Positions 25,406 through 63,115 of a stretch of 64,000 nucleotides of DNA are shown here, in pieces. The translations under genes and the position numbers were made by a program. The notes under the pieces are model-generated. The model was not told the origin of the DNA, did not search any database, and saw only the letters and a list, made by a program, of their open reading frames with translations. How positions within the stretch are numbered: the first letter of the stretch is position 1; every line of letters starts with the position of its first letter. The stretch is from a virus (Duplodnaviria > Caudoviricetes): IMG/VR virus record IMGVR_UViG_3300031953_000001; one strand, given 5' to 3'.

Positions 25406-25696
25406 ATGGCTACTATTACTGATCTGGACGCAAAACGCGTTGAAATGAATAATGCGATCGATGCGTACAAGCAAGCAATCCTGGATTACCAGGCATCGAC
25501 TATTACTCTGGCACAACTGAATGCAGCTAAAGACGCCGCCAGCAGTAAAGCCGATGAGTTCGGCAAATTGGCCGGTCAAGTGAAGAAAGACAATCCTGGT
25601 ACGCCTACTGCGGATTTCTTTTCAAACTCAACCGTTCAAACCCAGGCACGGATCGATCACGTTGCAACGACCATGACCAATGGCCCAGCGGTTTAG
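25406..25696 (+). CDS. small helical late protein, domain X copy 1
   Basis: GGAG SD; homologous to 62834..63115 and to the N-terminus of 53468..54682. Confidence 0.8.
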   Translation: MATITDLDAKRVEMNNAIDAYKQAILDYQASTITLAQLNAAKDAASSKADEFGKLAGQVKKDNPGTPTADFFSNSTVQTQARIDHVATTMTNGPAV

Positions 25697-25758
25697 TCAG
25701 TCAGCATAAGGGACAAGCCAAAGTCTGAGCGCCAGCAACTTCCTTAACTTCGCATAAC

Positions 25759-25793
25759 CGCATAAGGGAGAGGCCAAATGGCCTCTCCCTATG
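25759..25793. terminator. CATA..TATG family hairpin
   Basis: CGCATAAGGGAGAGGCC-AAAT-GGCCTCTCCCTATG. Confidence 0.7.
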
Positions 25794-25809
25794 TTTGCCT
25801 TGCACTTTT

Positions 25810-25833
25810 TTTGAGTCATATATCATCAAAGTG
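25810..25833 (+). promoter_or_regulatory. putative early promoter (TATATCAT class)
   Basis: TTTGAGTCATATATCATCAAAGTG. Confidence 0.6.
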
Positions 25834-25872
25834 TTATCCATTACATTCACTAACGGACGAAGACCATGTGAC

Positions 25873-26985
25873 ATGCAACACATCGAGCCGCAAGAGACCC
25901 GATACATCGAGGTTGGTGATGTCGAGGTCTATACAGCCATAAGCCGTGCTCGAGGTCCTTTGGAATACAGTCTGGCGTACTTCAATCACCTCAATCGAGA
26001 GGTAACGATCACGCTGCGCAACGGCGTGCCGTTCAAGCTTCCTGCCGGAGACGGACGGAAGAACTGCGTTGAGGTACTAGCCACCTTCAGCATCGATCCT
26101 CAGGTGAGGGTAGATCCGAAGAGTACATTCCACAATGGCACCAGCGTCTCTGCGGAGTCGTTGGCGCTTAAAGCGGCCCTTGAGAACTGTGAGAAAAGCG
26201 GTCGATTCAACCGAAAAAGCTTCACGCTGAAGTACAGCGTTCCGGCGGAGAAGGTTGAAAAGAACAGCGGTGCCATCTACATTGCCGACTTGGACATGAC
26301 CCTCTCGGTCAGTTCGGACGATCGTCGTGCAATCCATCCGTATAGCCCCAGCAGCGATCGATACCGTCTCATTGAGGCGGAGGTGAATATCAACAACCCC
26401 GAGCGGTTTGGGTATTCTTTGTATCTGATCAGCAACAACGGAGCCATCACAGATAAGTACATTAACGTAGGAGGACGAGTTTATCGCGTACCCAGCATTG
26501 AGAATAAATCATTACGGGATGGCGTTTATCTATGTAGTAGTGGCTGCATAGAAGAAAAGGGAAACGCCCCTGTACCAGTCACCGAGTACTACACCCACGA
26601 ACAAGCTATTGAGCAACTGAGGCTCTTCGACGATCCTGAGACTGCCCGGAACCACGGCGATGCTTTGGCTGCTCGAGAGCAGGAACTTAAAGACCTTCAA
26701 TTTAAATACAAAGAACTAGAACACGATCAGAAAATGGAACGGTTGAAATACGAGCATAAACTGGCCGTACAAAAACAGGAAGTGGAGGAATTAAAGCTTG
26801 AGCAAGAACGTCAATTCGCCCGTGAGGAACACGAGCGTAAGATGCGAGCTATGCGCGATAAGGAGTACTACGACACGCGTCAATCGGCCCGCAAGGATTC
26901 CAGCGAGCTTATCAAGTTCATTCCAGTATTGATCACCGGAGTAATAGCCATAGCAATGGTTATTTCTAAACACAACAAAGACTAG
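25873..26985 (+). CDS. conserved protein with a C-terminal coiled coil and membrane anchor (phiKZ gp122 position)
   Basis: Coiled coil ELKDLQFKYKELEHDQK..., then hydrophobic FIPVLITGVIAIAMVI; synteny. Confidence 0.65.
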   Translation: MQHIEPQETRYIEVGDVEVYTAISRARGPLEYSLAYFNHLNREVTITLRNGVPFKLPAGDGRKNCVEVLATFSIDPQVRVDPKSTFHNGTSVSAESLALKAALENCEKSGRFNRKSFTLKYSVPAEKVEKNSGAIYIADLDMTLSVSSDDRRAIHPYSPSSDRYRLIEAEVNINNPERFGYSLYLISNNGAITDKYINVGGRVYRVPSIENKSLRDGVYLCSSGCIEEKGNAPVPVTEYYTHEQAIEQLRLFDDPETARNHGDALAAREQELKDLQFKYKELEHDQKMERLKYEHKLAVQKQEVEELKLEQERQFAREEHERKMRAMRDKEYYDTRQSARKDSSELIKFIPVLITGVIAIAMVISKHNKD

Positions 26986-26997
26986 GATCGGTTGTTG

Positions 26998-28620
26998 ATG
27001 GACTCTCAACTATTAGAAGGGGTACTTGAGCGCACGCCTGAGATCAACCCTCGCATTGCAAACGGTCTGGCCACTGAGCAGCTCCTGGGGGCTGAGCAGT
27101 TTGTCGACGAGATCTTCCGCTGTGCGGCGGTGGATTTCCCAGACGGCCTGACCTATGAGGGATCAAGACGGTGCACACCCAACCAAGAGTTTAACGAAGC
27201 CACCCGCGCAAGAGACAACCGGCAAGTCTACGAGCTTGCCCAAAGCGACTTCTATTTAATGGAGTACCGCTTCAAGCACCACGGCGAAGACCTGTTCCCC
27301 CGTTACTTGTACTTACCGTACGTGTCTCAGGGCGGCATGCTCAGCGTTCGGGGTAAGAAGTTTGCCATCTACCCAGTGTTGGCGGACCCGGCCTTCAGCG
27401 TTGGCCCAAAGAACATGTTCATACAGCTAACCCGTGCGCGGTTAACGTTTGAGCGTGTTACCCACCACTACATGGCCAACAACGAACACGAAGCAACGTA
27501 CGTAGCTTGGTCTTGGGTCCACAGTACCGCCCGCAACCGGCAAAGACGTAAGTCAGGCAACGCCAAAGTCATCTATTCCACTATGGCCAACTATCTGTTT
27601 GTCAAGCACGGCTTCACCGAAGCCATGCGGGAGTATACAGGAGCTGACGTAGTAGTGGGTGAAGATGAGATCACTCCGAAGGATTACCCCCCTGAAGATT
27701 GGGTGATCTGCAGCACCGTGGGCAACAAGCCGCGGGCGTTTGTGGGAGGCGCTTACCGCAGTGCTCGAGTTCGAGTGGCGGTGCCTAGAGAGCAGTACAC
27801 TCAACCGGTGCGCTGTTTATTGGGCGGCTTCTTCTACATCGCTGACCACTTCCCCAATCGAGTCCGTGCCGAGTACGTTGACGACGTGTGGATGTGGAAG
27901 GTGATTCTAGGACACATCATCTACGAGCCAGGGACCAGCGAAGGCTTGATGGTGCAAGAGATCGAAGACCACTTGGTCTCTTTGGATGAGTATCTGGATT
28001 CCATCGTCTGGAAGGAACTGAAAGCAGCGGGGGTGTCGTGCAATGACATCTACGAGCTTTTCATGCACGTGGTTGAAACCTTGGCGCAGAAGACGGCGTC
28101 CTCCGATGTGGGGGTCTCCAGCATCTACGGCAAGCGATTGATCACTCTGAGGTACGTGTTGTTTGACATCGTCAGTCAGATCAACACCTTGATGTACAAG
28201 CTCCGCGCCGCGCAGAAGAAGCGCAGTAAGCTGGAGATCACTGAAATCAACAACCTGATGAACATCTACTTACGCAGCGGCCGTATTGCCAACGTCAGTA
28301 ACCACGCAAAGCACCCGGAGGTCAATCCCATCTCCACCTCGAACGACAACCTGTTCTTTGGCGTCACGTGCAACATGCTGACCCAGGACAATGCGTCAAC
28401 TACGGGGGGTAAGAAAGGCAAGATCAATCTCAACGATCCTAGCAAACACTTACACGCCAGCGTGGCGGAAGTTGGCTCATACAACAACATTCCTAAGTCA
28501 GACCCCACAGGTCGGAGTCGGATCAATCCGTTTATACACATCGGAGCCGACGGAATGGTGGAGCGCGATCCTGACAAGAAACCCTTGTTGGACCACGTTC
28601 AAAGAATGCTGATGCTGTAA
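26998..28620 (+). CDS. non-virion RNA polymerase subunit, beta N-terminal part (phiKZ gp123 type)
   Basis: About 540 aa; TP..NP.IANGLA start, LYLPYV..GG, PVL.D and H.S.AEVGS..N motifs; synteny after MCP. Confidence 0.8.
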   Translation: MDSQLLEGVLERTPEINPRIANGLATEQLLGAEQFVDEIFRCAAVDFPDGLTYEGSRRCTPNQEFNEATRARDNRQVYELAQSDFYLMEYRFKHHGEDLFPRYLYLPYVSQGGMLSVRGKKFAIYPVLADPAFSVGPKNMFIQLTRARLTFERVTHHYMANNEHEATYVAWSWVHSTARNRQRRKSGNAKVIYSTMANYLFVKHGFTEAMREYTGADVVVGEDEITPKDYPPEDWVICSTVGNKPRAFVGGAYRSARVRVAVPREQYTQPVRCLLGGFFYIADHFPNRVRAEYVDDVWMWKVILGHIIYEPGTSEGLMVQEIEDHLVSLDEYLDSIVWKELKAAGVSCNDIYELFMHVVETLAQKTASSDVGVSSIYGKRLITLRYVLFDIVSQINTLMYKLRAAQKKRSKLEITEINNLMNIYLRSGRIANVSNHAKHPEVNPISTSNDNLFFGVTCNMLTQDNASTTGGKKGKINLNDPSKHLHASVAEVGSYNNIPKSDPTGRSRINPFIHIGADGMVERDPDKKPLLDHVQRMLML

Positions 28621-28700
28621 AGATGTCCCATGGGGAGGGTCTAACGACCCTCCCCTTTTGAGGCCTTAACCTGTAAACTTCGACCCTAAGGAGTGATGTC

Positions 28701-29093
28701 ATGCCACCCGAGCAAATCAAACGGATACAGGGCGGGGCCCTGATTCTTGCATTCTACGCTGTTATCTTTGGACTGCCGTCGGCTATATTGAGTCGGAGTC
28801 TGTTGGATCTGTTAGTTCTGCCATTGGTGTTCGGGTTGCCAACGTGTTACCTAATGGGCGTCTTTGATTCTAAGGTGTGGAGGGTAAACCATGACCGTAC
28901 CAAAGAACATACGCGACTTCAGCGATCTGATTTGCCTGTGCCTCTCCGACGGGTGGGAGTTTACCCAAGGACCCCCGAGCGAAACCCAGTTGCAACAATG
29001 GGCCGCTCGAGGCCGCGCCGAACTGGCGTTCAAACGTCCGAGGTGTCATCCTCAAGACTCGTCGAATCACAGCTTACATCTGATTCGCTGTAA
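28701..29093 (+). CDS. membrane protein
   Basis: AAGGAG SD; two N-terminal hydrophobic segments; the 3' part overlaps the next ORF. Confidence 0.5.
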   Translation: MPPEQIKRIQGGALILAFYAVIFGLPSAILSRSLLDLLVLPLVFGLPTCYLMGVFDSKVWRVNHDRTKEHTRLQRSDLPVPLRRVGVYPRTPERNPVATMGRSRPRRTGVQTSEVSSSRLVESQLTSDSL

Positions 29094-29214
29094 AGAAGAA
29101 ACGCGGGTCCGGATGGGTCATACCCGATGGACTCAAGTGGGACTGTGGACAGCCTGGCTCGACACCACGTCCAACGAGCTTATCGATGTACCGTGTAGAT
29201 TTGATCGAGTTTAA
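28891..29214 (+). CDS. hypothetical protein
   Basis: GGAGG SD before ATG 28891. Confidence 0.55.
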   Translation: MTVPKNIRDFSDLICLCLSDGWEFTQGPPSETQLQQWAARGRAELAFKRPRCHPQDSSNHSLHLIRCKEETRVRMGHTRWTQVGLWTAWLDTTSNELIDVPCRFDRV

Positions 29215-29233
29215 AAGATATATCATCCAGGTG
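29210..29233 (+). promoter_or_regulatory. putative early promoter (TATATCAT class)
   Basis: TTTAAAAGATATATCATCCAGGTG. Confidence 0.6.
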
Positions 29234-29326
29234 AACTGGATACCAACAACCAATTCCAGGGGAGATCCACTGGGTCTCAAAATACTTAGGACACACGTCC
29301 AATGGTAAGTCTTTAGGAGCATATCG

Positions 29327-31411
29327 ATGCACAATCCCCAACAACACCTACCGGTGTCTGCCACTCAGGTGCAGCAACACCAGTTCGTAACTGGGAACCA
29401 AATGCCCACGTTACCGAACATACCCGAGGTTGGGACCCTGCCACGACAAGAGGTCGTAAACCTCCACATGGCTTTGGTACACACCTTACAAGGGTTGGCC
29501 CCAAAGTCGGCGATTCGAACGTTCATGGCCAACTTGTTCAGTTCGAACCAGTACACGAACGCAGGCTACTCTGAATTACTGGGGGCGGCCATTGACTACT
29601 ACACGGTGCTTAAACGCGACAACCAAGCCGACGTCCAACGGTGTGCTCAGTTGATCCTGGACGCCTACGTGCCTAAGGTGGTGGATGAGTTTGCAGCCCT
29701 GTTGGCGTTCTTGACCCCTCAACAGCAAGCGGATTTGAACTCCTTGCGAGGGCTGCGTCAGCAAATCGGTGAGCAGGTAATGCAGGCACATGGTGGCTAC
29801 CCACCCCAGCAGCCAGGAGGCTATCCGCCGCAACAACCGAGCGGCTACCCACCGCAGCAAAACGTTGGCTACCCACCGCAAGGACATTACCCACAGCAGC
29901 CAGGAGGCTACCCACCCCAGCAGAATGTGGGTTATCCCCCACAAGGCGGTGGCGGCTACCCACCGCAACACGCAGGTGGTTATCCTCCTCAAGCTGGTGG
30001 AGGCTACCCACCGCAAGGCGGAGGACACCCGGGTGGACCTGATCTGCGGTTTGGAACCGGAGGTTACCCACCGCATGGCGGAGGTGGACGTCCTACAGCC
30101 GCTTGGGGTGGTGGTGCGCCACCTGCACCTGCGATGGGAACACGGCGTCCTGCAGGACCGGGTGCCAACAGCATGCTGAATCAAGCCGGTAGTAACGCGC
30201 CTGTACAGGGCGGAGGGTCACGTCGTCCCACCGTCGGAGGTGTACATAACCCACACGAAGTCAACCCAACCACCAACGAAGTACCAGGAGCTGAAATGAA
30301 ACACATTGAACCGGAGAACCGTCAACTGGGTCACTGGTCCGCTGTGCATGAAATCAGACCCCCGGCTCCACCGATTGACCGCGAAGTAACGTTCACATCG
30401 GCTTCTTATATACCCGTACGCCGCATCGATCAAAAGATCGTCACCACTGAAAAAGACGGACGCACCCAATGGGGCGTTGTTGACCTTGAGGAAGGATTTA
30501 TGGATTACAACCAACACGAGCAAAACCAGAAGATGACGACCTTAGCCCGTCAAACTCAAGTAGGACCAAAAGTGGGACGTGCCGCGCACTGGGCCGATGT
30601 GTCTGTTCCCAACGTTGTTAGCGCCGACGACCCTAAAGACGAAGAACACTCGGAGTCGTTCAAAGCCGACGTAGCGGTTATCCTAAATGAGCCTGTGTTG
30701 GCGTATTCGTTCAGTCATGGCCGGAGTCAAGCGTTGGCCAGTGCTGAGACCTTAGGGGTGGAGTACAGCCCCGAGCGGGTCTTTGAGTATTACATAGATC
30801 TGATGACGCCCGTGGGCAGTGCGGTGGCGGCTGAACAGATCCAGAAGTTGCGTGAAACTGAAGATCTGGCTCACCTGGTTACGGTGTTGACGGAACTGGC
30901 GTCGGAAATGGACAGTCGCTTGTGGTACCAGATCCACGATCGATTGACTGCGGTGTTCTGTCGTCGTATGCGTGGTGGCATTGGCTTTCCTGCAGACATC
31001 ACCTCCATCGTCGACGATTACGAAGTGATCATGGGTATTTTGAAGAGTAAGTTCTCCGACCCGGCGGTGGACACATTCAAACGCAATGCGTTTGTAACTT
31101 GCCTGAGAGCCTTAAACCTAAGGGAAAGCAACAGCAAAACCTTAGTGGCGGAATCGGTCAGTGTGACGGAGCTGCCTTGGACCAGTCAAGAGATTGGGTT
31201 GGTGATGGAAGCCAAGTACTGCATGCTCAGTGCAGCGGTGAATGAACAGATGGCGGGGGCAGCTTTGGCGTTGTTTGAACGGACCAACGTGAAGAGTCGT
31301 CAGATGAATCGACGCTTCTGGGTAACCGCCGACAACGTGGTGATCGAGTTGCATCGAGGCGATATGGGTCAGAACACGTTCCTAATCTCCAAATCCGAAC
31401 TGTGCTGCTAA
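29327..31411 (+). CDS. conserved core protein with a central G/Y/P/Q low-complexity region
   Basis: AGGAG SD; 694 aa; GYPPQ repeats between two folded-looking domains; position after the nvRNAP gene. Confidence 0.8.
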   Translation: MHNPQQHLPVSATQVQQHQFVTGNQMPTLPNIPEVGTLPRQEVVNLHMALVHTLQGLAPKSAIRTFMANLFSSNQYTNAGYSELLGAAIDYYTVLKRDNQADVQRCAQLILDAYVPKVVDEFAALLAFLTPQQQADLNSLRGLRQQIGEQVMQAHGGYPPQQPGGYPPQQPSGYPPQQNVGYPPQGHYPQQPGGYPPQQNVGYPPQGGGGYPPQHAGGYPPQAGGGYPPQGGGHPGGPDLRFGTGGYPPHGGGGRPTAAWGGGAPPAPAMGTRRPAGPGANSMLNQAGSNAPVQGGGSRRPTVGGVHNPHEVNPTTNEVPGAEMKHIEPENRQLGHWSAVHEIRPPAPPIDREVTFTSASYIPVRRIDQKIVTTEKDGRTQWGVVDLEEGFMDYNQHEQNQKMTTLARQTQVGPKVGRAAHWADVSVPNVVSADDPKDEEHSESFKADVAVILNEPVLAYSFSHGRSQALASAETLGVEYSPERVFEYYIDLMTPVGSAVAAEQIQKLRETEDLAHLVTVLTELASEMDSRLWYQIHDRLTAVFCRRMRGGIGFPADITSIVDDYEVIMGILKSKFSDPAVDTFKRNAFVTCLRALNLRESNSKTLVAESVSVTELPWTSQEIGLVMEAKYCMLSAAVNEQMAGAALALFERTNVKSRQMNRRFWVTADNVVIELHRGDMGQNTFLISKSELCC
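29792..30076 (+). repeat. coding tandem repeat, ten GYPP[QH] units
   Basis: Repeated GGCTACCCACC(G/C)CA units read directly from the sequence. Confidence 0.95.
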
Positions 31412-31423
31412 CGCACGCTGAAT

Positions 31424-31453
31424 GAGAGAGGGCCTTCGGGTCCTCTCTTTTTT
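31424..31453 (+). terminator. intrinsic terminator
   Basis: GAGAGAGGGCC-TTCG-GGTCCTCTCT followed by a T-tract. Confidence 0.85.
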
Positions 31454-52391: not shown

Positions 52392-53429
52392 TTAATCGGC
52401 CGCTGTGCAACCCGTTGGAACCGTAATGAGCATATCAGTATCGCCAATGATGCTGGCGGTACTTACAATGTCCACGTCAGAGAGGACAGTTCCTTTTACT
52501 CGCGAGACGTCCAAGGTAATAACACCTGCCTGACTGCGCGCGTTGTTGCCAATCGACGTATTGATCGCGTTAATCGCACCGGCGGCGCTACTGATGACGC
52601 TGCCCTTAACCAATACCCCGTTCAAGGTAGTGACGCCACCACTGATGATGTCCTTACCAACCGTGCTGCCAGTGCCAATGTTGATCGCACCGCTGCCGGT
52701 GGAAACTGAGCCTCCCACAGTAACGTTGTTGGTCAGACCTACAACGCCCGCGCCGGTACTGACAACGCTACCACACAACCAACTTCGGTCGCCTATGGTG
52801 ATGCCGCCAGCGGTGGTGGCGATACCGCCGCCAAGGACGACGTCCGTTAATAAGGTAACCACCCCATCGGTGGATGACACCTCACCGTCCACCGTGCTTC
52901 TCACCCCTAAATTAATCCCGCCGGCTTGGGTGCTGACATCCCCCCCGACTCGACTTTTATACTCCAAGGTTATTACACCGGTAGAGGCACTGGTGCTGAT
53001 GTTCCCAGACAGTCTACTTTCACTGGCTAAATTAACGGTCCCCACCCCGACTACGTTGGCGTTCATTATTGAATTTGCACCCAACACAAACGCCGCGTTG
53101 GTAATCAACGTAAGGTCCTCGGACGGTTTTCCAGCGTTGATCAGATTGCCCGTCCCGGTGGTGAAGGTTCCGGAAAAGGTAATCGTAACCGGAGTCACAC
53201 CGCCCAGAGCGATGGTGTCGCCTGCAACCAACTCCAACGCACTGCATCCGTAGGAGCGCGCCCCGGCATCGATGAGACTACAGCCTATGGGTAGCGTGTC
53301 TCCATTGGAAGAAAACGTGTAATTAGTGGCGGCTTGAACAAGATTGCTTAACAGCAACCCTACCACCAGCAGCGTCTGACACAAGAGTTGTATCGGCGTA
53401 TACCGACGGTGGGGGCTTTGGTGTTTCAT
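52392..53429 (-). CDS. secreted beta-helix protein resembling the N-terminus of MshQ/DUF6701-type pilus-associated adhesins
   Basis: Sec signal ending VQA; ATNYTF...LP.GCS...Y.C.AL.L..GDTI; repeated G.V.T..G.I.L/IG units. Confidence 0.55.
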   Translation of the reverse strand: MKHQSPHRRYTPIQLLCQTLLVVGLLLSNLVQAATNYTFSSNGDTLPIGCSLIDAGARSYGCSALELVAGDTIALGGVTPVTITFSGTFTTGTGNLINAGKPSEDLTLITNAAFVLGANSIMNANVVGVGTVNLASESRLSGNISTSASTGVITLEYKSRVGGDVSTQAGGINLGVRSTVDGEVSSTDGVVTLLTDVVLGGGIATTAGGITIGDRSWLCGSVVSTGAGVVGLTNNVTVGGSVSTGSGAINIGTGSTVGKDIISGGVTTLNGVLVKGSVISSAAGAINAINTSIGNNARSQAGVITLDVSRVKGTVLSDVDIVSTASIIGDTDMLITVPTGCTAAD

Positions 53430-53467: not shown

Positions 53468-54682
53468 TTAAAAGTTAGGTAAATAGTTGGTTTGGATGTT
53501 GCTGTCGAAACTGAAACCGCCAAAGAGAGTTACTTGACTCACAGTCCAACCGCTGAGGTCCTGATTGAAGGCCCCCGCAAAACTGAACATGGAACTCATG
53601 TTGGTCACCTTACTCACATCCCACTGACTCAAAGGTCGGTTGAAGGCGCCAGCTCGATAGAACATAGAACCCATGTCCACCACGTTGCCTACCCCCCAAT
53701 CGTTCAAAGGAAGGTTAAACGCCGTCGCTCTAAAGAACATGGCGTTCATGTTGGTGACGCTGCTGACATCCCAGCTGTTGAGCGGTTGATTAAATGATTC
53801 GGCCCCAGAGAACATCTGCATTGTGGTCTCAACACCGCTGACATCCCAAGCCTCCAGCGGCTGGTTGTAGCTTACGGCTCGGTTAAACATGGCCGTCATA
53901 TCCACCACACCGCTGACGTTCCATTGGTTAAGCGGTAGATTAAAGGCCGCGGCCTCTCGGAACATGTGTGAGGTGTCGATCACATTACTCATGTCCCAGT
54001 GGCTAATATTGCTGTTGAAGTCAGCTGCCCCGTAAAACATATACCGACACGACGTCCCAGGGAGAAAGGCCGGACTGTCAGCGTCGTTGATCACAAACCC
54101 GGTCCGGTTTTGGAACATACGTTCGCCTGAGGCAAACGTAGTTAGTCCCCACCGCCATATATTTTTCCACTGTTTCTGATGTTCTGGTAACGGTGCGGTA
54201 AACCCGGCGATGGCGCCTAACACATGAACGTCGTATATCCCAGGGACCGCGTAAGTGTGACTGATGCCCCGGGTGGTTGTTACATACCCAGAGCCATCGC
54301 CCCAGTCGATGGTGACGTCACTGCCGGCGGCAAAGGGTAAGGCCACGTCGGCGGCGCCTGCCGTGTCACCTTCGGTGTCGATCAATATATGCGTACCGTC
54401 CCGGATCGGATGTCCCCGCATTAAGATAACGGCGATCTCATCGCGAACCGACTCACCCATAAACAGAGGTTGGCTGAACAGCTGATCGATGTCGGTGATT
54501 GTAGGGTCGTCTCGTTTGACTTGAAAGACCAGTCTTGCGTACTCATCGCCTTTGATTTGAGCCGTGGATTTGGCGCTGAGGAGATCCCATGGAGTGACCT
54601 CTGATAACACCGCTTGCCGGTAAGCTTCGGTGGCGTTGTACAGCTCATTGCGTTTGGCATAAAGATCGTCGAGGATAGCCAT
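53468..54682 (-). CDS. domain X + PKD-like + DUF285/BspA-like 25-residue repeat surface protein
   Basis: N-terminal domain X; IDWGDG..HTY..PG.Y.V; seven MF..A..FNQPL..WDVS.V..M repeats. Confidence 0.85.
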   Translation of the reverse strand: MAILDDLYAKRNELYNATEAYRQAVLSEVTPWDLLSAKSTAQIKGDEYARLVFQVKRDDPTITDIDQLFSQPLFMGESVRDEIAVILMRGHPIRDGTHILIDTEGDTAGAADVALPFAAGSDVTIDWGDGSGYVTTTRGISHTYAVPGIYDVHVLGAIAGFTAPLPEHQKQWKNIWRWGLTTFASGERMFQNRTGFVINDADSPAFLPGTSCRYMFYGAADFNSNISHWDMSNVIDTSHMFREAAAFNLPLNQWNVSGVVDMTAMFNRAVSYNQPLEAWDVSGVETTMQMFSGAESFNQPLNSWDVSSVTNMNAMFFRATAFNLPLNDWGVGNVVDMGSMFYRAGAFNRPLSQWDVSKVTNMSSMFSFAGAFNQDLSGWTVSQVTLFGGFSFDSNIQTNYLPNF

Positions 54683-54734: not shown

Positions 54735-55520
54735 TTATTTACGAAACAACGTCTCACCTAACCATCCAATGGGGTCTATGCGGTGGAAACGTACTTGATT
54801 TGGGTGTCGATGATGTTCTTCGTGCCAGCAGTCACCGAGAATAAAGGGAAACATCCATAAACTGCTGTGGGCGCGGTCGTGATCGTTGCCCCAACCGTGG
54901 CCCCAGGTGTTGGCTAACGATTGCAGTTGCCACACCAGAGCCGGTGGCGCCCAGACTAGAGCCAAGGCCCAGTCCAACGGCAGCAGCCAGAGACTGCCTA
55001 ACAACACCGATCCGTAGATCTTCCAGTAGTGTCTGTGAAACCCCACATGCCAGGTATCTCGCAACAAACGCCCGGCATGCCGGCCGCTGACCTCTCGAAA
55101 GGTGTACCCTAACAGCTGAATGGCCAGCCAATGACTCTGAGCTGGACTATGAGGGTCCTTAGGGGTCCCCTGGTGCTTGTGATGGGCATTGTGAGTGGCA
55201 ACCCACCCCAACGTACTGCCTTGAAGTGAAAGCCCTCCCAGAAGAGTTAGAATCACCTCTACGGATCGGGGTACAGTTACGGTCTTGTGCGTCAGCACTC
55301 GATGGTACATAAAACTGATCCCCAGTTGTGAGATCAGGTACGCCATCCCTAGGGCCAGTAACAGAGCGCCACCGGCACCAGAAAAGACCAATGTCAAAAC
55401 GACAGCGTGTGACGCGATGATCACGCTGTAATGCAAGACTCGGTTCAGAGGTACGATTTCTACATTGATCGCGCGCAGTCGGTCCATGGTACTTCCTTTT
55501 AAGTCAATAAGAACGTTCAA
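54735..55520 (-). CDS. membrane fatty-acid desaturase (Delta9-like), copy 1
   Basis: His boxes YHRVLTH, HNAHH and WHEEHH; DPHS; hydrophobic helices. Confidence 0.88.
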   Translation of the reverse strand: MNVLIDLKGSTMDRLRAINVEIVPLNRVLHYSVIIASHAVVLTLVFSGAGGALLLALGMAYLISQLGISFMYHRVLTHKTVTVPRSVEVILTLLGGLSLQGSTLGWVATHNAHHKHQGTPKDPHSPAQSHWLAIQLLGYTFREVSGRHAGRLLRDTWHVGFHRHYWKIYGSVLLGSLWLLPLDWALALVWAPPALVWQLQSLANTWGHGWGNDHDRAHSSLWMFPFILGDCWHEEHHRHPNQVRFHRIDPIGWLGETLFRK

Positions 55521-56951: not shown

Positions 56952-56953
56952 GA

Positions 56954-57259
56954 TTAAAACTCCAGAGGTTGGTCTTGGGTGTGGACATCGCCGTCATCGT
57001 AATGCACGTACAGGGCGTCTGGGGTCGATCCGACCCGCTGTTCAATAAGTTCGCGGAGTTGTGAAGATAATGCCAACTCAGCAGGCAACTCAGGCCGCAG
57101 CTCTTCGATCAACTCTCGCATACGAATGAGAGGCAAGTTAGGGTCGTCAACTATGGCTTGAGGCAACGGGTGGCTATGCACCACCCACCCCCAATCGACT
57201 AACGCAGTCTTATCGACCAGATCAATGGCTTTGACTACAAAGGACATCACGTTCTCCAT
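56954..57259 (-). CDS. hypothetical protein
   Basis: ATG at 57259 overlaps the upstream TGA (TGATG coupling). Confidence 0.65.
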   Translation of the reverse strand: MENVMSFVVKAIDLVDKTALVDWGWVVHSHPLPQAIVDDPNLPLIRMRELIEELRPELPAELALSSQLRELIEQRVGSTPDALYVHYDDGDVHTQDQPLEF

Positions 57260-58116
57260 CAGAGTTGTTTGGGGTAGGTACGTTGGTGCTCTAACGCGAT
57301 GAGGGACAGCGTCTTCTCCATCCGCTCTGAACTGTCGTCTACCCAACAAACCCCACTGTAAGGGCTGGCTAGGAAACGCCTCAGCGCGATGTGTGGGTTG
57401 GTCTGTGAAAACACCGCCTTGTATATTTGTCGGTAGATGTTTCGGGCACAGGTGGGGTCCGTGCTGTCTACTAACTTCACGACCTTACCCAACAGTAACC
57501 CCAACAACCCCATTTCGGAGGCAGAGGTGGTGTATACGGTCTCAGCCCGACGTAAGTAATCGAACCCACTCAAAGTGGCAGGTAACACCGCCCCTGGAAA
57601 ACTGTCGTTCAACTTTTTCAACCAAGCCCCGTTAGTGATGGGATGGGGTTTGATCTTACTGCCCCGCCGATACAGCTGGAACACCCTGACCCAATCGACG
57701 TTGTGTTCCAACAAGTTGGTGCCCGGTAGAAACACCACCGATGGGATGGTGGTTTTGTCCAACTGACGAGTGAGTCGATACTTATCCAACCGCATCCCCA
57801 ACAGACGTTGTTCCACATCGATAGGTTCAGCATCGGTGTCGCTGACCGCCGAGATTGCCATACCGTACCGAAGTCTATCGTCGCAGGGGGTGATCATGAT
57901 GGCTCGGGTAAAGAGTTCGGTGTAATGTAAGGATTTGAATTCAGGATCGGGGGTGTAATAAATGTCGTACAACACTTCTTTGGTTGTCAGCGACTCTAAC
58001 CGTTGTCCTAAGACGTCCAATTGACTCAAAGCCGCCACTCGACCTAAAGGGCCGGATTTGAAGACCTGAGTCACCGCTGAGTCTATACGGTCCTCAGTAA
58101 ACGACCGTCGGGTCAT
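57259..58116 (-). CDS. KpsS/capsule-synthesis-like GT-B glycosyltransferase
   Basis: VFLPG, IKPHP and V.TT.SE.GLLGLLLGK.V match the Capsule_synth-type KPHP and T..S..G.EA.L.GK.V motifs. Confidence 0.6.
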   Translation of the reverse strand: MTRRSFTEDRIDSAVTQVFKSGPLGRVAALSQLDVLGQRLESLTTKEVLYDIYYTPDPEFKSLHYTELFTRAIMITPCDDRLRYGMAISAVSDTDAEPIDVEQRLLGMRLDKYRLTRQLDKTTIPSVVFLPGTNLLEHNVDWVRVFQLYRRGSKIKPHPITNGAWLKKLNDSFPGAVLPATLSGFDYLRRAETVYTTSASEMGLLGLLLGKVVKLVDSTDPTCARNIYRQIYKAVFSQTNPHIALRRFLASPYSGVCWVDDSSERMEKTLSLIALEHQRTYPKQL

Positions 58117-58343
58117 ACGGCGCCGTCCAACCGTTTGGCCAAGATCTCGTCTACTCGGGACTGCACCCGATCGTCAACCACGGCGTTGATGTTGGTTTCA
58201 AACTCGTCCATAATCGCCGCTACCCGATCGTCAAACCGAGTGATGTGTTCCAATAACGCCTCGGCTAAGGTCTCAATGCGCAGGCGCGCAGCGTCCAGTT
58301 CGGCTAAGGTGACGGCTTTATCGGCTACGGTTGCTTCAGTCAT
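58113..58343 (-). CDS. small coiled-coil protein
   Basis: Heptad pattern; ATGA overlap with the next gene. Confidence 0.7.
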   Translation of the reverse strand: MTEATVADKAVTLAELDAARLRIETLAEALLEHITRFDDRVAAIMDEFETNINAVVDDRVQSRVDEILAKRLDGAV

Positions 58344-58357
58344 AAAATATTCCTTGC

Positions 58358-58870
58358 TCAGTATAGCTGTAGTGCGATGATGGCGGTGTTGGCTGAGGTG
58401 GTGTACTCAGTGGTTCGACTGCCGGCCAAGGTGGTGGTGTTTCGGGTTAAGGTGGTGTTTCTTGCTGTGACGTGCGATGTGGTGCGGGACGCAAAGACGG
58501 CGGTGGTGACCGAAGTACTCAATGTCTTCCCGCCGGTGTCTGGTATCTCCGTAATGCGCGAGGTGGTGCGAGACCCAGACTGATACGTAGTTGCGTACGA
58601 GGTGTTGAAACTCGTTGACGCTATCCAGGACGTTAAGGTCGTGGTGGAGGCGTCTGTGGTACGAGTGGCCGTGGCTGTGGTCACTCGGGTGGTGGACACC
58701 GACCGCGAGTAAGTCACGTTTAACATGTCGCTCAGACGAAACGGTGGCGTGAGCGGCATGCTTGGAAAGCCTCGACCCAGCAGGTTGGACATGCGATTGT
58801 CGGGGAGCGTGTTTTGAAATTCGGTGATCACGTCCGAGAATCGTAGCGGTGGACTGCCTTGTAATGCCAT
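58358..58870 (-). CDS. Ser/Thr-rich tail-tip adhesin-like protein
   Basis: N-terminal MALQGSPPLRFSDVITEF...RLSDM resembles fibre-tip anchor domains; about half of the last 110 residues are S/T. Confidence 0.6.
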   Translation of the reverse strand: MALQGSPPLRFSDVITEFQNTLPDNRMSNLLGRGFPSMPLTPPFRLSDMLNVTYSRSVSTTRVTTATATRTTDASTTTLTSWIASTSFNTSYATTYQSGSRTTSRITEIPDTGGKTLSTSVTTAVFASRTTSHVTARNTTLTRNTTTLAGSRTTEYTTSANTAIIALQLY

Positions 58871-58873
58871 AGG

Positions 58874-59620
58874 TTACTCCTTTTTAATCAGACGAATAAA
58901 CCAGGCGGCAAAGTCCCATTCCCACCAGCGTTCTTGGGTGTTCCAATGTCCCGGGTGGGCGTGATGGTTGTTGTGCCATCCATCCCCAGCGGTTAATACG
59001 TTCATCAGCCAACTGTTACGACTGCGGTCGGGCGTCTCGTGGTTGCGGTAACCCCAACCATGGCCGAGGGTGTTGAACACTCCTTTCAGATGAAACAACA
59101 GAGCCGTAGGAAGACACCAGCCGTAGACCAGCAGTTTCCAGTCGATCAAACTCAACCCCAAGGCGTAAATCAGCAGAATGAGAACGTAGTAGTCGTGTGT
59201 GATCTGATAGAACCGTTGTTTACGTTCGGTTCGAATGGCGCGATGGTCCAAGACCCAAGGTCGATCCAGCCAATCTCCAAACCAAGCGTCGATAAGGCCG
59301 TGTTGGTGTTGGCTGTGTGGGTCTCTGGGGCGATCTGAAAAGCCGTGATGGGTTCGGTGTACCAATGCGTTTGTCAATGGCGAGCCTAATGCAGTCAAGA
59401 TCCCCACGCCCGTGAGTGCAAGCTCAATGGGTTTATAGGTTTCAAACGACCTGTGCGCCAACAATCGATGATACCCCACGGTGATGCCAAAGAACCCATA
59501 GGCGTAATAGATAGCTAATGTAAACCCAAGCCAGCCCCACCAGCCGAGATAGATCGCCAGAGGCAGAAACACACACAACACCAGTTGGTTGCAGATTTGA
59601 AGGTGTTTTAGATACGTCAT
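58874..59620 (-). CDS. membrane fatty-acid desaturase (Delta9-like), copy 2
   Basis: GYHRLLAHRSF, HRTHH, DPHS, NTLGH, GYRN..T.D.SRN and WHNNHH. Confidence 0.92.
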   Translation of the reverse strand: MTYLKHLQICNQLVLCVFLPLAIYLGWWGWLGFTLAIYYAYGFFGITVGYHRLLAHRSFETYKPIELALTGVGILTALGSPLTNALVHRTHHGFSDRPRDPHSQHQHGLIDAWFGDWLDRPWVLDHRAIRTERKQRFYQITHDYYVLILLIYALGLSLIDWKLLVYGWCLPTALLFHLKGVFNTLGHGWGYRNHETPDRSRNSWLMNVLTAGDGWHNNHHAHPGHWNTQERWWEWDFAAWFIRLIKKE

Positions 59621-59700
59621 GGTTTACTCGCTCAATCGGAGTGGGTTCACTCTATTAGAGATCGCTGTCAAAGAACAGACATCCATGTCCTAATGAAACC

Positions 59701-61923
59701 TCAACGGCGATTAAGTCGGTCCGACAACTTGACGGTCAGCTCTTGAACGGTGACCTCCAGCCAAGCGACGCGGCGGTTGCTGATGTCCAACTCTCTCGCC
59801 ATCTGTTTGATGGAGTGTTGCGCCAGGGCGTGAAAGTCGTTGTACGACAACCCCTCGTAACCGTCGTCTTTCTGTCTTACCAAGTCAGGGAAGAACGCTT
59901 TAACGTCTGTGGTCAGAAACCCGTAGTGGGTTTGATTTGAGACGTCTTCAGTTAGGCGATACGAGTAGGGTCTCAGTTCCAGATAGTTATACAACGCGTT
60001 ATCCAGAGCTTTCACGTCTTCCTTCAATCGAGGATCGGAGGTGTAGACCACATCGCCGGCGTACAGATCGCCGGTGACCGTAAGATCGCCGGTGACCGTA
60101 TCGCCACCCGCTTTACCGACGTACCGAGCGTCGTGATCGCCCGACACGCGGTGATCGTTCATACCCTTGGCTTGCAATACCGTGTCCGTGTCGACGGACG
60201 TTCGCAGCGCGGTGGTGGGCAAGTTCGGCTCTGCGTTGGCGGCAACGGTGTCGAGTTTGACGACGTTGGCCGACGCCATCAATCCGGCTGCTGAAACGCT
60301 GGCCAGAGGGAAGGCGACGCCATCTCCCGTAGACGACACCAAGGTAGGGGCTTCTGCCGTGCCGCCCACACTGAGGTCCGTGGCTACGTTGACCTGCGCT
60401 CCCGATTGAACGCTGGCCAGTTTACTGTGGTCGTTGATGCTCATGAACCCGGCAGCCGTATCCGTTGCCACAGGAATGGCCACGTTGTTGCCCGTGCTGC
60501 TTACCAAGGTTCGAGTGTCGCCCGCACCGGTCAAGGTCAGATCCGTACCCACATTGACTTGAGCACCGGAACTCACCCCATCCAACTTCACTTTATCGCT
60601 GGCGGACATGACGCCGGCGTTGGTGACACTTACCCCAGGAATGGCGACATTGTTGCCGTAGCTGTTGGTGATCGTGATACTGGTGGCGGTTTGCGTGAGC
60701 GCCAAGTTACTGGGTACATTGACCTGGGCGCCTGTCTCTACCCCCCCGAGTTTGGTGAACTGCGCCATGGACATCAACCCGGCCGTGCTGGCTGAGGCTG
60801 TCGGTAAGACCACGTTACTACCGGTGGACGAGGTGACACCGCGAGCATCGCCGGTCCCACTCAACCCGAGGTTGGTGCCCACGTTGACTTGTGCGCCAAT
60901 CGCCACACCGGCCAATTTGGTTTTCTCAGTCGAACTGTAATCTTCGCTCGATAGCCCTTTGCCAGCGACGGTGTTCACTTTGGTGAGCAGCGCCGTGTCC
61001 ACTTGAAGTTGAGTGTAATAACGCCCGTCGTGGTCGTCGGACGCGACGTGATCTACCATTCCTTTGGCCGTCAGCACCGTACCTGTCTCATTCAACGTTC
61101 GTGACGAGGTGGTGGGCAAGTTCACTTCCGCCGCGGTTTGGATGTTGGCCAATTTGGTAAACTGACTTGGCGCCATCAACCCAACCTTGGACGCATCGGC
61201 CACCACCAAATCAACTCCGGTACCACCACTGTTCTCTATGCGGTAGGTTGTACCCCCACGAGTGAACGTCAAGTTCACCGCAACGTTCTGCTCAGCGCCG
61301 GCTTCAATGCCGGTTAATTTACTCAACCAGGCATCGGTGAAGTCATTTGCACTTAAGGCTTTGCCCGTGACTTTATCGACTTTGGTACCCAAGGCTGACT
61401 GCAACCCGGCGATCGAATCGATGCTCAAGTTCTCCAACGAGTCTCGATTGAGCTTGATGTAATCCACAATCTCTTGGATCTGATCCAGAGTGGTGTCGTC
61501 GCTGCCAATCAAGGCGTTGATGGCGTCCACCGCGTCTTTCAGTACCTTACCTTGCGCCGCACTCAACACCTCACTGGGGGCGTTGCTGGTCAGCGTATCG
61601 GCGATGTTGGCGATGTCAATTTTCAACGCCAAGGCCGCATCCATTTCCGTTTCGGTGTAGTAACGCCCGTCGTGGTCGTCGGACGCGACGTGATCTACCA
61701 TCCCTTTGGCGGTTAACAAGACCCCGGTGCTATTGACCGTGCGTTCGATGGTGATGGCGTTCGGAATCTGGTCCAACCCGACCTGTACTTTGGTCACTGA
61801 GTGGGGATTATCGTCTCGTGCAATGTGCGTGTCCGTGTTCTCAAAGAGAATGTCGATCTTTCCCTTGAGGGTTTCGAACATACGCTTGACCGCTGCGGTT
61901 AGCTGGTCGGTTGGTTTGGTCAT
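59701..61923 (-). CDS. tail fibre with a C-terminal intramolecular chaperone (Peptidase_S74)
   Basis: NPHSVTKVQVGL start, KL.G...GAQVN repeats, SDPRLKED..L...YGF..DV...FPDLV. Confidence 0.88.
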   Translation of the reverse strand: MTKPTDQLTAAVKRMFETLKGKIDILFENTDTHIARDDNPHSVTKVQVGLDQIPNAITIERTVNSTGVLLTAKGMVDHVASDDHDGRYYTETEMDAALALKIDIANIADTLTSNAPSEVLSAAQGKVLKDAVDAINALIGSDDTTLDQIQEIVDYIKLNRDSLENLSIDSIAGLQSALGTKVDKVTGKALSANDFTDAWLSKLTGIEAGAEQNVAVNLTFTRGGTTYRIENSGGTGVDLVVADASKVGLMAPSQFTKLANIQTAAEVNLPTTSSRTLNETGTVLTAKGMVDHVASDDHDGRYYTQLQVDTALLTKVNTVAGKGLSSEDYSSTEKTKLAGVAIGAQVNVGTNLGLSGTGDARGVTSSTGSNVVLPTASASTAGLMSMAQFTKLGGVETGAQVNVPSNLALTQTATSITITNSYGNNVAIPGVSVTNAGVMSASDKVKLDGVSSGAQVNVGTDLTLTGAGDTRTLVSSTGNNVAIPVATDTAAGFMSINDHSKLASVQSGAQVNVATDLSVGGTAEAPTLVSSTGDGVAFPLASVSAAGLMASANVVKLDTVAANAEPNLPTTALRTSVDTDTVLQAKGMNDHRVSGDHDARYVGKAGGDTVTGDLTVTGDLYAGDVVYTSDPRLKEDVKALDNALYNYLELRPYSYRLTEDVSNQTHYGFLTTDVKAFFPDLVRQKDDGYEGLSYNDFHALAQHSIKQMARELDISNRRVAWLEVTVQELTVKLSDRLNRR
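61019..61701. repeat. 41-bp exact direct repeat inside the tail fibre gene (61019-61059 and 61661-61701)
   Basis: TAACGCCCGTCGTGGTCGTCGGACGCGACGTGATCTACCAT occurs twice, encoding MVDHVASDDHDGRY. Confidence 0.95.
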
Positions 61924-62002
61924 ACCGGATTCCCCGTACTAGGCAAAATAAGACGAAGGCGTCCTCGCAAAAGGCGCCCTCGTCGATGATTCGGTTAGGA
62001 TC

Positions 62003-62461
62003 TTACGATGACGTGGAGCTGATCGTTAACAGTGGCATGCACAACCACAAGCGACTGGGAGACATGGGCAGATCGGGCCAGGACAAAGTAGACCCCCCTA
62101 TCGTAAGCGCGGTGGCCACAAAGGTTGCCGGGTTCCAGCCCTCTAAAGTGCGTGGGGTACCGATGGGCATCCATTGAGGTTTGTCGTACGCAGGTTTGGT
62201 TATCTGCGTTCTTACGAATCGGGACATGGCCTCAGAATCGGTCACCCGCACCACCACCAAACTTCGGTCTGGGTACCGGTCTTCGAACGTTGTCTTAGTT
62301 CTAAACACCACCCCCGAGTCGACGTCTACCTCAGCGATGTAGGAGTTCAACTCCAACGCCACGTGATCCCAATAGGTTTGGGTAACAAGACGACGCACCG
62401 AGGCCGTCTTGCCAGGTCTGCGAGCAAACCAGACCTTTACCCATTTATTTTTTGGTCGCAT
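62003..62461 (-). CDS. permuted papain-like (YiiX/NlpC-P60-like) protein lacking the catalytic Cys
   Basis: WDHVAL His motif and K..YD retained; WFCSELVA position reads WNPATFVA. Confidence 0.5.
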   Translation of the reverse strand: MRPKNKWVKVWFARRPGKTASVRRLVTQTYWDHVALELNSYIAEVDVDSGVVFRTKTTFEDRYPDRSLVVVRVTDSEAMSRFVRTQITKPAYDKPQWMPIGTPRTLEGWNPATFVATALTIGGSTLSWPDLPMSPSRLWLCMPLLTISSTSS

Positions 62462-62714
62462 CGATGACTTTCACCACATCGCTCAGAGACAAGCCCGTCC
62501 ACTGACCGTAGACTTGAGTCAACGTCTCTACGTCCTTGGTGTTGTACAGCGCGCTTTCAATCAACTTAACCAGAAGATCGTCGATGGAGTTGTCGGTCTT
62601 CTTAGACAGCAAGACCAACTTGGTGATGATGATGCGTTTGACGGCGTCGGTACCCAGCAGACTGAGTAGAATCTCACCGAGTTTGCTCAGCATCAAAGTC
62701 ATAGTGGTTTTCAT
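62445..62714 (-). CDS. small late protein
   Basis: AGGAG SD before ATG 62714; KKTDNSIDD motif; late promoter upstream. Confidence 0.65.
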   Translation of the reverse strand: MKTTMTLMLSKLGEILLSLLGTDAVKRIIITKLVLLSKKTDNSIDDLLVKLIESALYNTKDVETLTQVYGQWTGLSLSDVVKVIDATKK

Positions 62715-62747
62715 AGGTCTTCTCCTAACGGTTAAACTAAGTGTGGT

Positions 62748-62755
62748 CATACCAT
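62748..62755 (-). promoter_or_regulatory. putative late promoter ATGGTATG driving the tail fibre operon
   Basis: CATACCAT on +, downstream of the hairpin at 62787-62817. Confidence 0.6.
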
Positions 62756-62786
62756 TTCAAGAAGATGAGCCCGATCCTTAAAGCGG

Positions 62787-62822
62787 AATAAGAGGAGACC
62801 TGTTGGTCTCCTCTTTGTTTTA
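62787..62822. terminator. terminator hairpin
   Basis: ATAAGAGGAGACC-TGTT-GGTCTCCTCTT. Confidence 0.75.
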
Positions 62823-62833
62823 TGCTCACATTG

Positions 62834-63115
62834 TCAACGGGTACGTATAATAGCGGCTACATCATCCCGCCGAAGAGACGACATTAAGTCTGGGTTGCTG
62901 AACAAAACGTCGTCTATTAAAGTGGGGTTGTCTTTCTTCACCCGCCCCATTAACTTTGCGTATTCAACGACGGTCACTCGCGCAGCTTTACGAGAAGCGG
63001 TAACCTCAAACTGTGTGGTGCGTTTGTGGTTAAACTCCTCAACCGTGCGTTTGTAATCATCGATCGCCGCATTTAACTCCGCGCGCTTTACGTTTAAATC
63101 TGTAACTGTAACCAT
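62834..63115 (-). CDS. small helical protein, domain X copy 3
   Basis: Homologous to 25406..25696. Confidence 0.8.
   Translation of the reverse strand: MVTVTDLNVKRAELNAAIDDYKRTVEEFNHKRTTQFEVTASRKAARVTVVEYAKLMGRVKKDNPTLIDDVLFSNPDLMSSLRRDDVAAIIRTR

Follow-up and report, generated by a model that had tools for sequence, protein, structure and literature searches.

X, a constant N-terminal three-helix module and putative virion-docking domain in a phiKZ-like giant phage from brine

The locus and its features

The source of the analysed DNA is an uncultured phiKZ-like giant phage from brine with a 222-kb genome, of which the window is a stretch of 64,000 nucleotides. The window carries three copies of an unnamed domain of about 90 residues, here called X, in the following setting:

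23111..25273, + strand: phiKZ-type major capsid protein (PF25620, E 1.8e-184; phrog_3231), 132 nt upstream of the 96-aa X gene
25363..25376, + strand: late-promoter-like element GTCTTGATGGTATG, 30 nt before the start codon of the 96-aa X-only gene
25406..25696, + strand: X-only gene (96 aa), next in line behind the major capsid gene, with its own hairpins upstream and downstream and its own TATG element
53468..54682, - strand: full-length X protein, 404 aa, with X (residues 1-92), an Ig/PKD-like sandwich (~97-177) and a DUF285 BspA-type LRR solenoid (~178-404)
54407..54682, - strand: X domain of the 404-aa protein, with helices at residues 4-26, 31-58 and 77-89
54735..55520, - strand: fatty-acid desaturase paralog (PF00487, E 1.4e-10), 52 nt upstream of the 404-aa X gene
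62834..63115, - strand: X-only gene (93 aa), separated by 9 nt from the preceding desaturase gene; a hairpin lies downstream, and there is no separate promoter element
63125..63973, - strand: fatty-acid desaturase paralog (PF00487, E 9.8e-16), last in a tandem trio and 9 nt upstream of the 93-aa X gene

The preliminary description of this DNA had located one X copy after the capsid gene and two directly after desaturase genes. Both placements hold: the PF25620 gene ends 132 nt upstream of 25406-25696, and the 404-aa and 93-aa copies follow PF00487 desaturases at 52 nt and 9 nt. The three ORFs are present at the coordinates first given and align end to end over ~90 residues, as had also been claimed, with 35-40% identity and significant scores (BLASTP E 3e-21, 3e-16 and 2e-15), and are true paralogs.

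A family of nine X proteins

The three copies are real, yet their number falls short of the whole, because a profile search of the phage genome retrieved nine. Each of the six copies outside the window is N-terminal in a protein of 359-509 aa. Seven of the nine proteins combine X with an Ig/PKD-like part and DUF285 (BspA-type LRR), at 359-509 aa, and the other two are the X-only genes (96 and 93 aa), both inside the window. The alignments have 20 invariant columns among the three window copies and 18 over eight copies, and conservation is highest where helix 2 ends, along the following loop and on into helix 3 (DEYAKL..QVK.DDP....DD.LFS.P). Among six full-length copies of this genome (the seventh was left out of the alignment), identity reaches 63-64% in X and the Ig part compared with 52% in the LRR cargo. 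Reading of the sequences revealed no signal peptide or membrane segment, and the genes are spread around the genome, most of them having a terminator and a TATG element to themselves. The nine X proteins form one family of predicted late-expressed binding proteins, with X as the constant N-terminal three-helix module.

The cargo of the 404-aa protein (53468-54682) had been described as PKD plus DUF285. The C-terminal part matches DUF285 (PF03382) well above the gathering score (328 bits, cut-off 25; E 1.8e-99), whereas the PKD match (E 2.6e-4) misses the Pfam thresholds (21.4 bits against 23.5 for PF00801, 18.9 against 27 for PF18911), with residues 97-177 modelled by AlphaFold2 as a beta-sandwich at pLDDT >90. 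The WGDG..H.Y..G.Y motif of this PKD-like part is invariant across the family. The AlphaFold2 model averages a pLDDT of 86.8 over the whole protein and exceeds 90 in the Ig and LRR parts. Its LRR solenoid bears a weak likeness to LRR ectodomains (Foldseek E >0.001), and the full-length model retrieved from the PDB and AFDB/Swiss-Prot weak matches only, all of them LRR receptors and none a phage structural protein.

Fold and relatives of X

The predicted fold of X is a three-helix bundle of generic type, in which a third helix adds to a helical hairpin. The two X-only proteins had no match in Pfam or PHROG at the thresholds used (best E ~0.08), and the best hit of the X profile among PDB sequences was a designed protein (E 0.046). 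The X model found no informative structural match in the PDB and BFVD (Foldseek), in 48,161 chains (VIA-align) or in the ESM Atlas; the matches were generic helical bundles, spectrin-like repeats and efflux-adaptor alpha-hairpins with Z <=9.6, under the informative level for helical bundles. A complex prediction with three X copies, aimed at self-association, scored 0.00, which is no answer and counts neither way.

Searching the X profile against 1.84 billion (1.84e9) protein cluster representatives yielded 36 matches, about 25 of which are true relatives, and X begins at residue 1 in all relatives with an intact N-terminus. The cargo fused to it is DUF285, LamG/ConA-like, a beta-propeller or none: P0014 carries Laminin_G_3 (E 7e-8), P0005 a jelly-roll-like domain and P0013 a beta-propeller (TM 0.76-0.82 to LVIVD/SGL propellers), and four more proteins from other phages (P0018, P0025, P0032 and P0034) are X-only. 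No match was obtained by tblastn in 50,697 phage records, no relative was confirmed by a pattern scan of IMG/VR using the X profile, and a word-index search for X-only-sized homologs recovered the query protein alone. When the profile was run against the whole records of OBP, PAU, AH04, D3 and SXP01, a single match appeared, in OBP (E 0.01), and was judged spurious because it lies antisense inside OBP_103. X thus has no recognisable relative in cultured phages, as covered by the phage records and the five whole genomes. The X family occurs in uncultured phiKZ-like jumbo phages that form a small clade from brine.

Promoter elements and timing

TATG, the late promoter consensus of phiKZ (PMC4666361), occurs 25-62 nt upstream of five of eight X genes, compared with 25 among the 119 others (p 0.018 by Fisher test). 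The proposal that the 96-aa X gene has its own late promoter agrees with a late-type TATG element 30 nt before its start codon. The extended 14-nt element, searched as the pattern GTCTTGATGGTATG, occurs once in the window, where 0.02 matches are expected, and four times in the genome, three of them before X genes and one before the gene for the phiKZ_IP internal head protein. Against late timing, TATG comprises four bases only, and the major capsid gene lacks it at the same distance.

The element in common with the phiKZ_IP gene, the X copy after the capsid gene and a relative's X-only gene two genes downstream of a phiKZ_IP-like gene would all suit a capsid-targeting propeptide or scaffold-binding signal, by which its fusions would enter the prohead to serve as internal or ejected proteins, X maybe being cleaved off afterwards. 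Heads of phiKZ-like phages do package many proteolytically processed proteins. We nevertheless consider such a role improbable: Ig/PKD-like, BspA-type LRR, LamG-like and propeller modules are typical outward-facing ligand binders, the X/cargo junction (..LLVDTEG..) departs from the S/A/G-x-E cleavage motif of the phiKZ-type protease, and an X-only protein with no cargo makes poor sense as a targeting signal.

Late timing bears on a further alternative, in which the X proteins are intracellular, F-box-like adaptors, X docking to a phage or host machine while the variable module captures host targets such as defence proteins. A small constant helical N-terminal domain joined to LRR, propeller or lectin-like modules would fit this, as would the missing signal peptide and the scattered, multi-copy, fast-evolving genes whose cargo varies more than X. 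However, the promoter elements are of late rather than early type, PKD, DUF285 and LamG modules are overwhelmingly extracellular, and several X copies lie inside structural gene clusters, so that we regard the adaptor role as very improbable.

Desaturase adjacency

Both desaturase neighbours score above the PF00487 gathering score (41.8 and 58.7 bits against 29.7) and contain the H..HH boxes. Contigs from an RNA library cover this region, with strand, transcript ends and expression level not readable from them; one metatranscriptome contig corresponds to 62825-63524 and spans the 93-aa X gene with part of the desaturase, which is no proof of transcription. The desaturase at 63125..63973 is probably co-transcribed with the 93-aa X-only gene.

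The preliminary description had suggested a repeated desaturase-X module, and X as a partner or substrate carrier of the desaturases; neither is supported by the wider comparison. The two desaturases share 31% identity without being one another's nearest paralogs, and their X copies are not sisters, so the two pairs are not duplicates of one another. A function of X as partner, regulator or substrate carrier of the phage membrane desaturases could draw on the two of nine copies that directly follow a desaturase, one of them 9 nt away and on the same RNA-library contig, and on an estimate under random placement that two chance adjacencies have a probability of ~0.01, given five desaturases in ~257 genes. 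It is, however, extremely improbable, considering that the other seven copies and the contigs of two relatives with upstream neighbours have no adjacent desaturase, that the sister phage G002 retains orthologs of both desaturases with no X beside them, that the cargo fused to X is adhesin-like, and that X, by reading of its sequence, shows no hallmark of a carrier protein, such as a redox motif or phosphopantetheine site. Upstream of the X-only relatives found elsewhere lies an SbcC-like gene or an unrelated gene of 278 aa. Two candidate neighbours were rejected in this comparison: the gene before P0025, considered as a capsid gene, turned out to be SbcC-like, and the one before P0034, considered as a desaturase, gave no such match. 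We infer that the desaturase adjacencies stem from insertion slots in an accessory region, with no shared function.

Gene slots in sister phages and the X-only genes

Other X genes in the genome neighbour gp130/gp131-like fibre genes, a baseplate-assembly gene, an S74-chaperone tail fibre and an endolysin. The slot after the capsid gene holds a 408-aa X-PKD-DUF285 gene in G002, an X-only gene here and nothing in a second sister phage, G001, which also carries an internally deleted and frameshifted X-family relic. The phiKZ gene of this slot, gp121, shows no similarity to X (hhalign probability 0.3%). Birth and death at fixed slots is thus the pattern of the X family, as seen in the two sister phages.

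The two X-only genes in the window appear to be cargo-less derivatives of full-length genes, and they might be functionless leftovers of deleted ones, which we regard as possible though doubtful. The full-length positional counterpart in G002 and the clear relic in G001 are what such decay would leave, together with a possible relic of the C-terminal tail beyond the stop codon of the 96-aa gene and the lack of a close ortholog of the 96-aa protein elsewhere. On the other hand, both ORFs are intact and end at the domain boundary despite ~60% divergence, all 18 invariant positions are kept in both proteins, both genes have a terminator and one a promoter element, and X-only proteins occur in other phages (the four named above). 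The X-only genes retain the fold-defining and motif residues, and therefore their products probably occupy or regulate the same site as full-length X.

Comparison with known systems

The fibre paralogs gp131, gp133, gp134 and gp135 of phiKZ have a common N-terminal anchor and differing C-termini, gp131 ending in a propeller (PMC13250141), and the short 110-aa gp132, listed as a gp131 paralog, adjoins their genes (Xiao et al. 2026, PMC13250141). These fibres resemble the X family in belonging to the same phage lineage, in being paralogs with an N-terminal attachment segment (putative in X) and a variable C-terminal module, in having a propeller (gp131 and the X relative P0013) and in including a short protein in the set (gp132 and the X-only proteins). 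In contrast, the gp131 N-domain is beta-rich with an LPFDP..G..N motif and X is all-helical, with no similarity in sequence or fold; the gp131-like protein of this genome (G0 88734-91415) has an LPFDP..G..N-type motif and no X. The phiKZ fibre genes are also arranged in tandem whereas the X genes are dispersed.

This comparison raises the reading that X is chiefly an oligomerisation module, with paralogs, X-only proteins included, assembling into mixed helical bundles, as the hetero-hexameric base of the phiKZ fibres does, with another protein as the anchor. Six N-terminal segments of different phiKZ paralogs do form a six-helix bundle (PMC13250141), and a helical hairpin with a third helix is a plausible element of such an assembly, in which X-only members would suit as structural filler. 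The dissimilarity of X to the gp131-type N-terminal domain and the presence of a separate gp131-like gene argue against it. BspA-type LRR and Ig modules, moreover, are usually monomeric, and we hold a chiefly oligomerising X to be rather improbable.

T4 Hoc follows the logic proposed here for X, being a dispensable monomeric Ig-containing adhesin held on a large capsid by a small dedicated binding domain. Its capsid-binding domain, however, is C-terminal and unrelated to X, which is N-terminal; it is encoded by a single gene compared with a family of nine, and it has tandem Ig-like domains where the 404-aa X protein has one Ig-like domain plus LRR cargo. Nor is the linkage of X to the capsid gene kept across the sister phages.

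The PF03382 repeat cargo of the X fusions recurs in OBP_145, AH04 gp144, Aeromonas D3 gp155 and AaV_052/382. In cultured phiKZ-like phages the DUF285 gene has baseplate-assembly and SbcC genes as neighbours, a setting shared by one X copy of the present genome; OBP and AH04 each have one giant DUF285 gene (1,700 aa) without X, compared with seven small X-headed genes here. The giant protein of these two cultured phiKZ-like phages is annotated 'hypothetical' and its neighbour 'virion structural protein', and the former label may mean that the protein was undetected in particles. Literature searches turned up no direct proteomic evidence that phage particles contain DUF285 or BspA proteins; the particle of the giant virus AaV packages two DUF285 proteins and LamG proteins (PMC7507832).

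X as a putative docking module

Taken together, X may well be a shared virion-docking module for interchangeable adhesin cargo, a reading drawn from sequence to which we give about an even chance. Behind X the cargo is interchangeable between Ig/PKD-like plus BspA-type LRR, a LamG/ConA-like jelly roll and a beta-propeller. The earlier suggestion of a virion-surface anchor displaying cargo is in keeping with this domain order, with promoter elements of late type and with the surroundings of the genes; its link to the capsid gene is weak, because the slot is empty in G001 and occupied by a full-length fusion in G002. By means of X, each of the proteins would be plugged into a single, common virion site (the capsid surface, or the tail or baseplate periphery), probably through the conserved stretch from the end of helix 2 to helix 3, and a single particle would display mixed adhesins. 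Against docking, the 93-aa X-only gene is closely tied to an operon of desaturases, an unexpected arrangement for a protein of the particle, and X has a generic fold, the three-helix bundle, for which the structural searches gave nothing informative.

A more specific reading, which we put forward as unlikely but worth stating, is that X is a plug-in domain, undescribed until now, by which at least seven adhesins of LRR, lectin-like and propeller types, mixed and rapidly exchangeable, occupy one class of virion site, with the X-only proteins competing for it and so setting the display level. If true, a phiKZ-like phage would possess a programmable system for displaying multiple adhesins.

Phage proteins that pair constant attachment with variable binding decide what the phage sticks to and are favoured parts for re-engineering. 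With ~90 aa and no annotation, X is a compact candidate for an attachment module that nature has already fused to three or more unrelated types of binding module, and the present analysis corrects a tempting, unsupported link between it and the unusual desaturase genes of the phage. Docking of X, if real, would account for the simultaneous display of many adhesins by a nucleus-forming jumbo phage in brine, and would offer a natural display handle.

X, a domain with nine copies in the genome

The three copies of X, a domain of ~90-95 residues, picked out in the preliminary description are confirmed as clearly homologous ORFs with statistically significant pairwise BLASTP alignments (E 3e-21 between the 96-aa and 93-aa genes, 3e-16 between the 96-aa and 404-aa genes, and 2e-15 between the 93-aa and 404-aa genes), sharing 35-40% identity across ~90 residues and 20 invariant columns. 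The capsid gene and two desaturases it had named as their neighbours were also recovered.

X genes, capsid gene and desaturase paralogs (window positions unless marked G000, the whole genome)
23111-25273, +, phiKZ-type major capsid protein (PF25620)
25406-25696, +, 96-aa gene, X alone
53468-54682, -, 404-aa gene, X at the N-terminus
54735-55520, -, fatty-acid desaturase (PF00487)
58874-59620, -, desaturase paralog
62834-63115, -, 93-aa gene, X alone
63125-63973, -, fatty-acid desaturase (PF00487)
G000:C1:108568-110163, just past the window end, desaturase paralogs

The window belongs to a virus record of 222,493 bp that has terminal repeats, and a profile built from the copies extends the observation to nine X domains. 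Seven form the N-terminal end of 359-509 aa proteins; DUF285 (BspA-type LRR) repeats were strong in all six long members scanned, and five of these had a weak PKD-type match after X. The only genes with X alone are the 96-aa and 93-aa genes, both in the window. The nine copies are spread across eight loci. Two form a tandem pair; the rest neighbour a tubulin-like gene or the group of baseplate-assembly, SbcC and gp130/gp131-like fibre genes, follow the capsid gene, fall within the region of desaturases and tail fibres, or lie close to RNA-polymerase genes. A 319-aa protein near one copy (G000:C1:16766-17725, -) has at its start a tubulin/FtsZ-like GGAG motif, recognised by eye, and is a possible PhuZ-like spindle protein.

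Nearly identical copies of 23000-27000 occur in sequencing runs of ~15 studies (2011-2024) whose labels are brine or aquatic metagenome, with a contig depth of roughly 580-fold in one, and the phage appears abundant and persistent in this habitat. Within the 404-aa gene, public DNA and RNA-library contigs break where X meets the Ig part (54296-54336), with alternative loose ends, probably reflecting assembly-graph branching among paralogs.

Distant relatives and structure

X matched no family in Pfam or PHROG. An HMM searched exhaustively against 1.84 billion cluster representatives gave 36 hits, ~25 of them genuine, in which X begins at residue 1 wherever the N-terminus is intact (P0019 has a 10-residue lead). 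Most relatives have PKD plus DUF285 as the C-terminal partner, whereas P0014 has Laminin_G_3 (E 7e-8), with a weak match in P0021. P0005/8/9/20/36 carry an unannotated ~195-aa module resembling viral jelly-roll domains (Atlas feature score 0.97), and P0013 a beta-propeller (Atlas TM 0.76-0.82 to LVIVD/SGL propellers); P0018, P0025, P0032 and P0034 have no partner, P0018, like P0028, being a partial sequence. The few contigs that show neighbouring genes are phiKZ-like, with part of an RNA polymerase beta gene, a phiKZ_IP-like gene and a baseplate gene; the gene ahead of X-only on them is SbcC-like or an unrelated one of 278 aa, in neither case a desaturase or a capsid gene. No X was found in cultured phages by tblastn, or by profile search of five jumbo-phage records. 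X is a new domain family with a very narrow distribution and a familiar architectural use.

AlphaFold2 with an eight-copy alignment models X as a three-helix bundle (helices 4-29, 35-62 and 76-92; pLDDT 77), and searches by fold and by sequence returned nothing informative for it. In the model of the whole protein (pLDDT 86.8), X, whose helix 3 is ill-defined, is followed by two confidently modelled parts, an Ig-like sandwich and an LRR solenoid, the latter weakly matching LRR ectodomains (Foldseek E above 0.001). That such a bundle is purely an oligomerisation module has lower odds than docking, in which the helix 2-loop-helix 3 stretch would likely make the contact.

Desaturases as neighbours

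The preliminary description had proposed a repeated desaturase-X module, or X as a desaturase partner. Five desaturase paralogs, 29-40% identical and with histidine boxes retained, lie within an ~11-kb stretch of the tail-fibre region, and the four of them that were compared have orthologs in both sister phages, G001 and G002. The 93-aa gene is probably co-expressed with its desaturase, since 9 nt separate the two, the gene lacks its own promoter element, and both lie on one RNA-library contig. However, the two desaturases preceding X genes are 31% identical and not mutual nearest paralogs, their X copies are not sisters in the X-domain tree, G002 has orthologs of both without X, seven of the nine X copies lack a desaturase neighbour, and none stands beside X in the two distant relatives' contigs that hold upstream neighbours. 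These observations argue against a duplicated module and a dedicated partnership; the desaturase reading is not supported and has lower odds than docking.

In the same region, the gene immediately following the 404-aa one (52392-53429, -) encodes a 345-aa protein whose N-terminus is hydrophobic and signal-like and whose long repetitive body is rich in Gly/Ser/Thr/Val; neither Pfam nor PHROG matches it, and both sister phages lack a counterpart. A 740-aa tail-fibre protein (59701-61923, -) has phage fibre repeats, a C-terminal S74 intramolecular chaperone domain and an NPHSVTK motif also present in the phiKZ gp131 family.

Promoter elements

Upstream of most X genes stand a GC-rich hairpin and, after it, a TATG 25-62 nt ahead of the start codon. 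Among X genes whose upstream gap measures 40 nt or more, five of eight show this, versus 25 of 119 other genes (Fisher p 0.018). A 14-nt element, GTCKTRATNNTATG, which follows a hairpin and T-run, occurs four times in the genome, three times before X genes and once before a PF12699 phiKZ internal-head-protein (phiKZ_IP) gene. Its positions include:

25363-25376, before the 96-aa gene
G000:C1:183762-183775, -, before gene 182563-183729

In G002 the element is also upstream of the X gene following the capsid gene. The clade may thus have in it an extended late promoter, for which it is a candidate. In phiKZ, the non-virion RNA polymerase uses TATG as the late promoter and starts transcription at the G (PMC4666361), which supports expression of X genes late, alongside structural genes, on evidence that is statistical and concerns a short motif. 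A role for X as a head-targeting signal has lower odds than docking.

Insertion slots in sister phages

Gene order was compared with two IMG/VR contigs, G001 (73 kb) and G002 (170 kb), whose capsid proteins are 75-77% identical to that of the present phage.

Contents of X slots in the three phages
After the capsid gene: G000, 96-aa X-only; G002, 408-aa full fusion; G001, nothing
After desaturase 54735-55520: G000, 404-aa fusion; G002, unrelated small genes; G001, frameshifted relic
After the desaturase trio: G000, 93-aa X-only; G002, nothing; G001, 291-aa fusion two genes downstream
Four slots outside the window: G000, X-fusions; G002, X-fusions retained; G001, contig without flanking orthologs

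X genes thus occupy recurrent insertion slots in which they are gained, truncated and lost. The G001 relic (G001:C1:40756-41090, -), directly after the orthologous desaturase, comprises X residues 1 to ~42, a frameshift and the last ~30 residues of the DUF285 C-terminus. Downstream of the 96-aa gene's stop codon, another frame encodes a short peptide resembling the family C-terminus ...NLPNF, possibly left behind by an internal deletion. In the X-domain tree the 96-aa copy joins full-length fusions of other phages (P0007/10/11), and full-length copies group largely by genome, not by slot, which suggests homogenisation.

A putative docking module

Phage fibre, spike and decoration proteins have as their standard layout a constant N-terminal module to which unrelated modules for ligand binding are attached. 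In the same lineage, the phiKZ fibre paralogs are a direct precedent for the X family's common N-terminus and variable C-terminus: they share an N-terminal anchor and differ in their C-termini, gp131 ending in a propeller, and the short gp132 (110 aa) is listed as one of them (PMC13250141). X is homologous neither to that anchor nor to phiKZ gp121 in the post-capsid slot. Cultured phiKZ-like phages of several hosts have one giant DUF285-repeat gene in a conserved position, beside SbcC, converging on the baseplate-assembly gene and annotated hypothetical only (OBP_145, AH04 gp144, Aeromonas D3 gp155, Shewanella SXP01). In OBP and AH04 these 1,700-aa proteins are 'hypothetical' beside 'virion structural' neighbours, a mild warning for the docking reading. 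X proteins also lack a secretion signal. That X is an intracellular adaptor has lower odds than docking.

The 96-aa and 93-aa genes would be cargo-less derivatives, probably still functional, since they are intact ORFs at ~60% divergence that keep all invariant residues and have their own terminators, and X-only genes exist independently elsewhere. Taken together, the fibre- and spike-like layout, the missing secretion signal, the late-type elements, the placement among structural genes and the phiKZ fibre precedent make a putative shared docking module, serving as a display anchor for interchangeable adhesin cargo, the best available, though unproven, interpretation of X.
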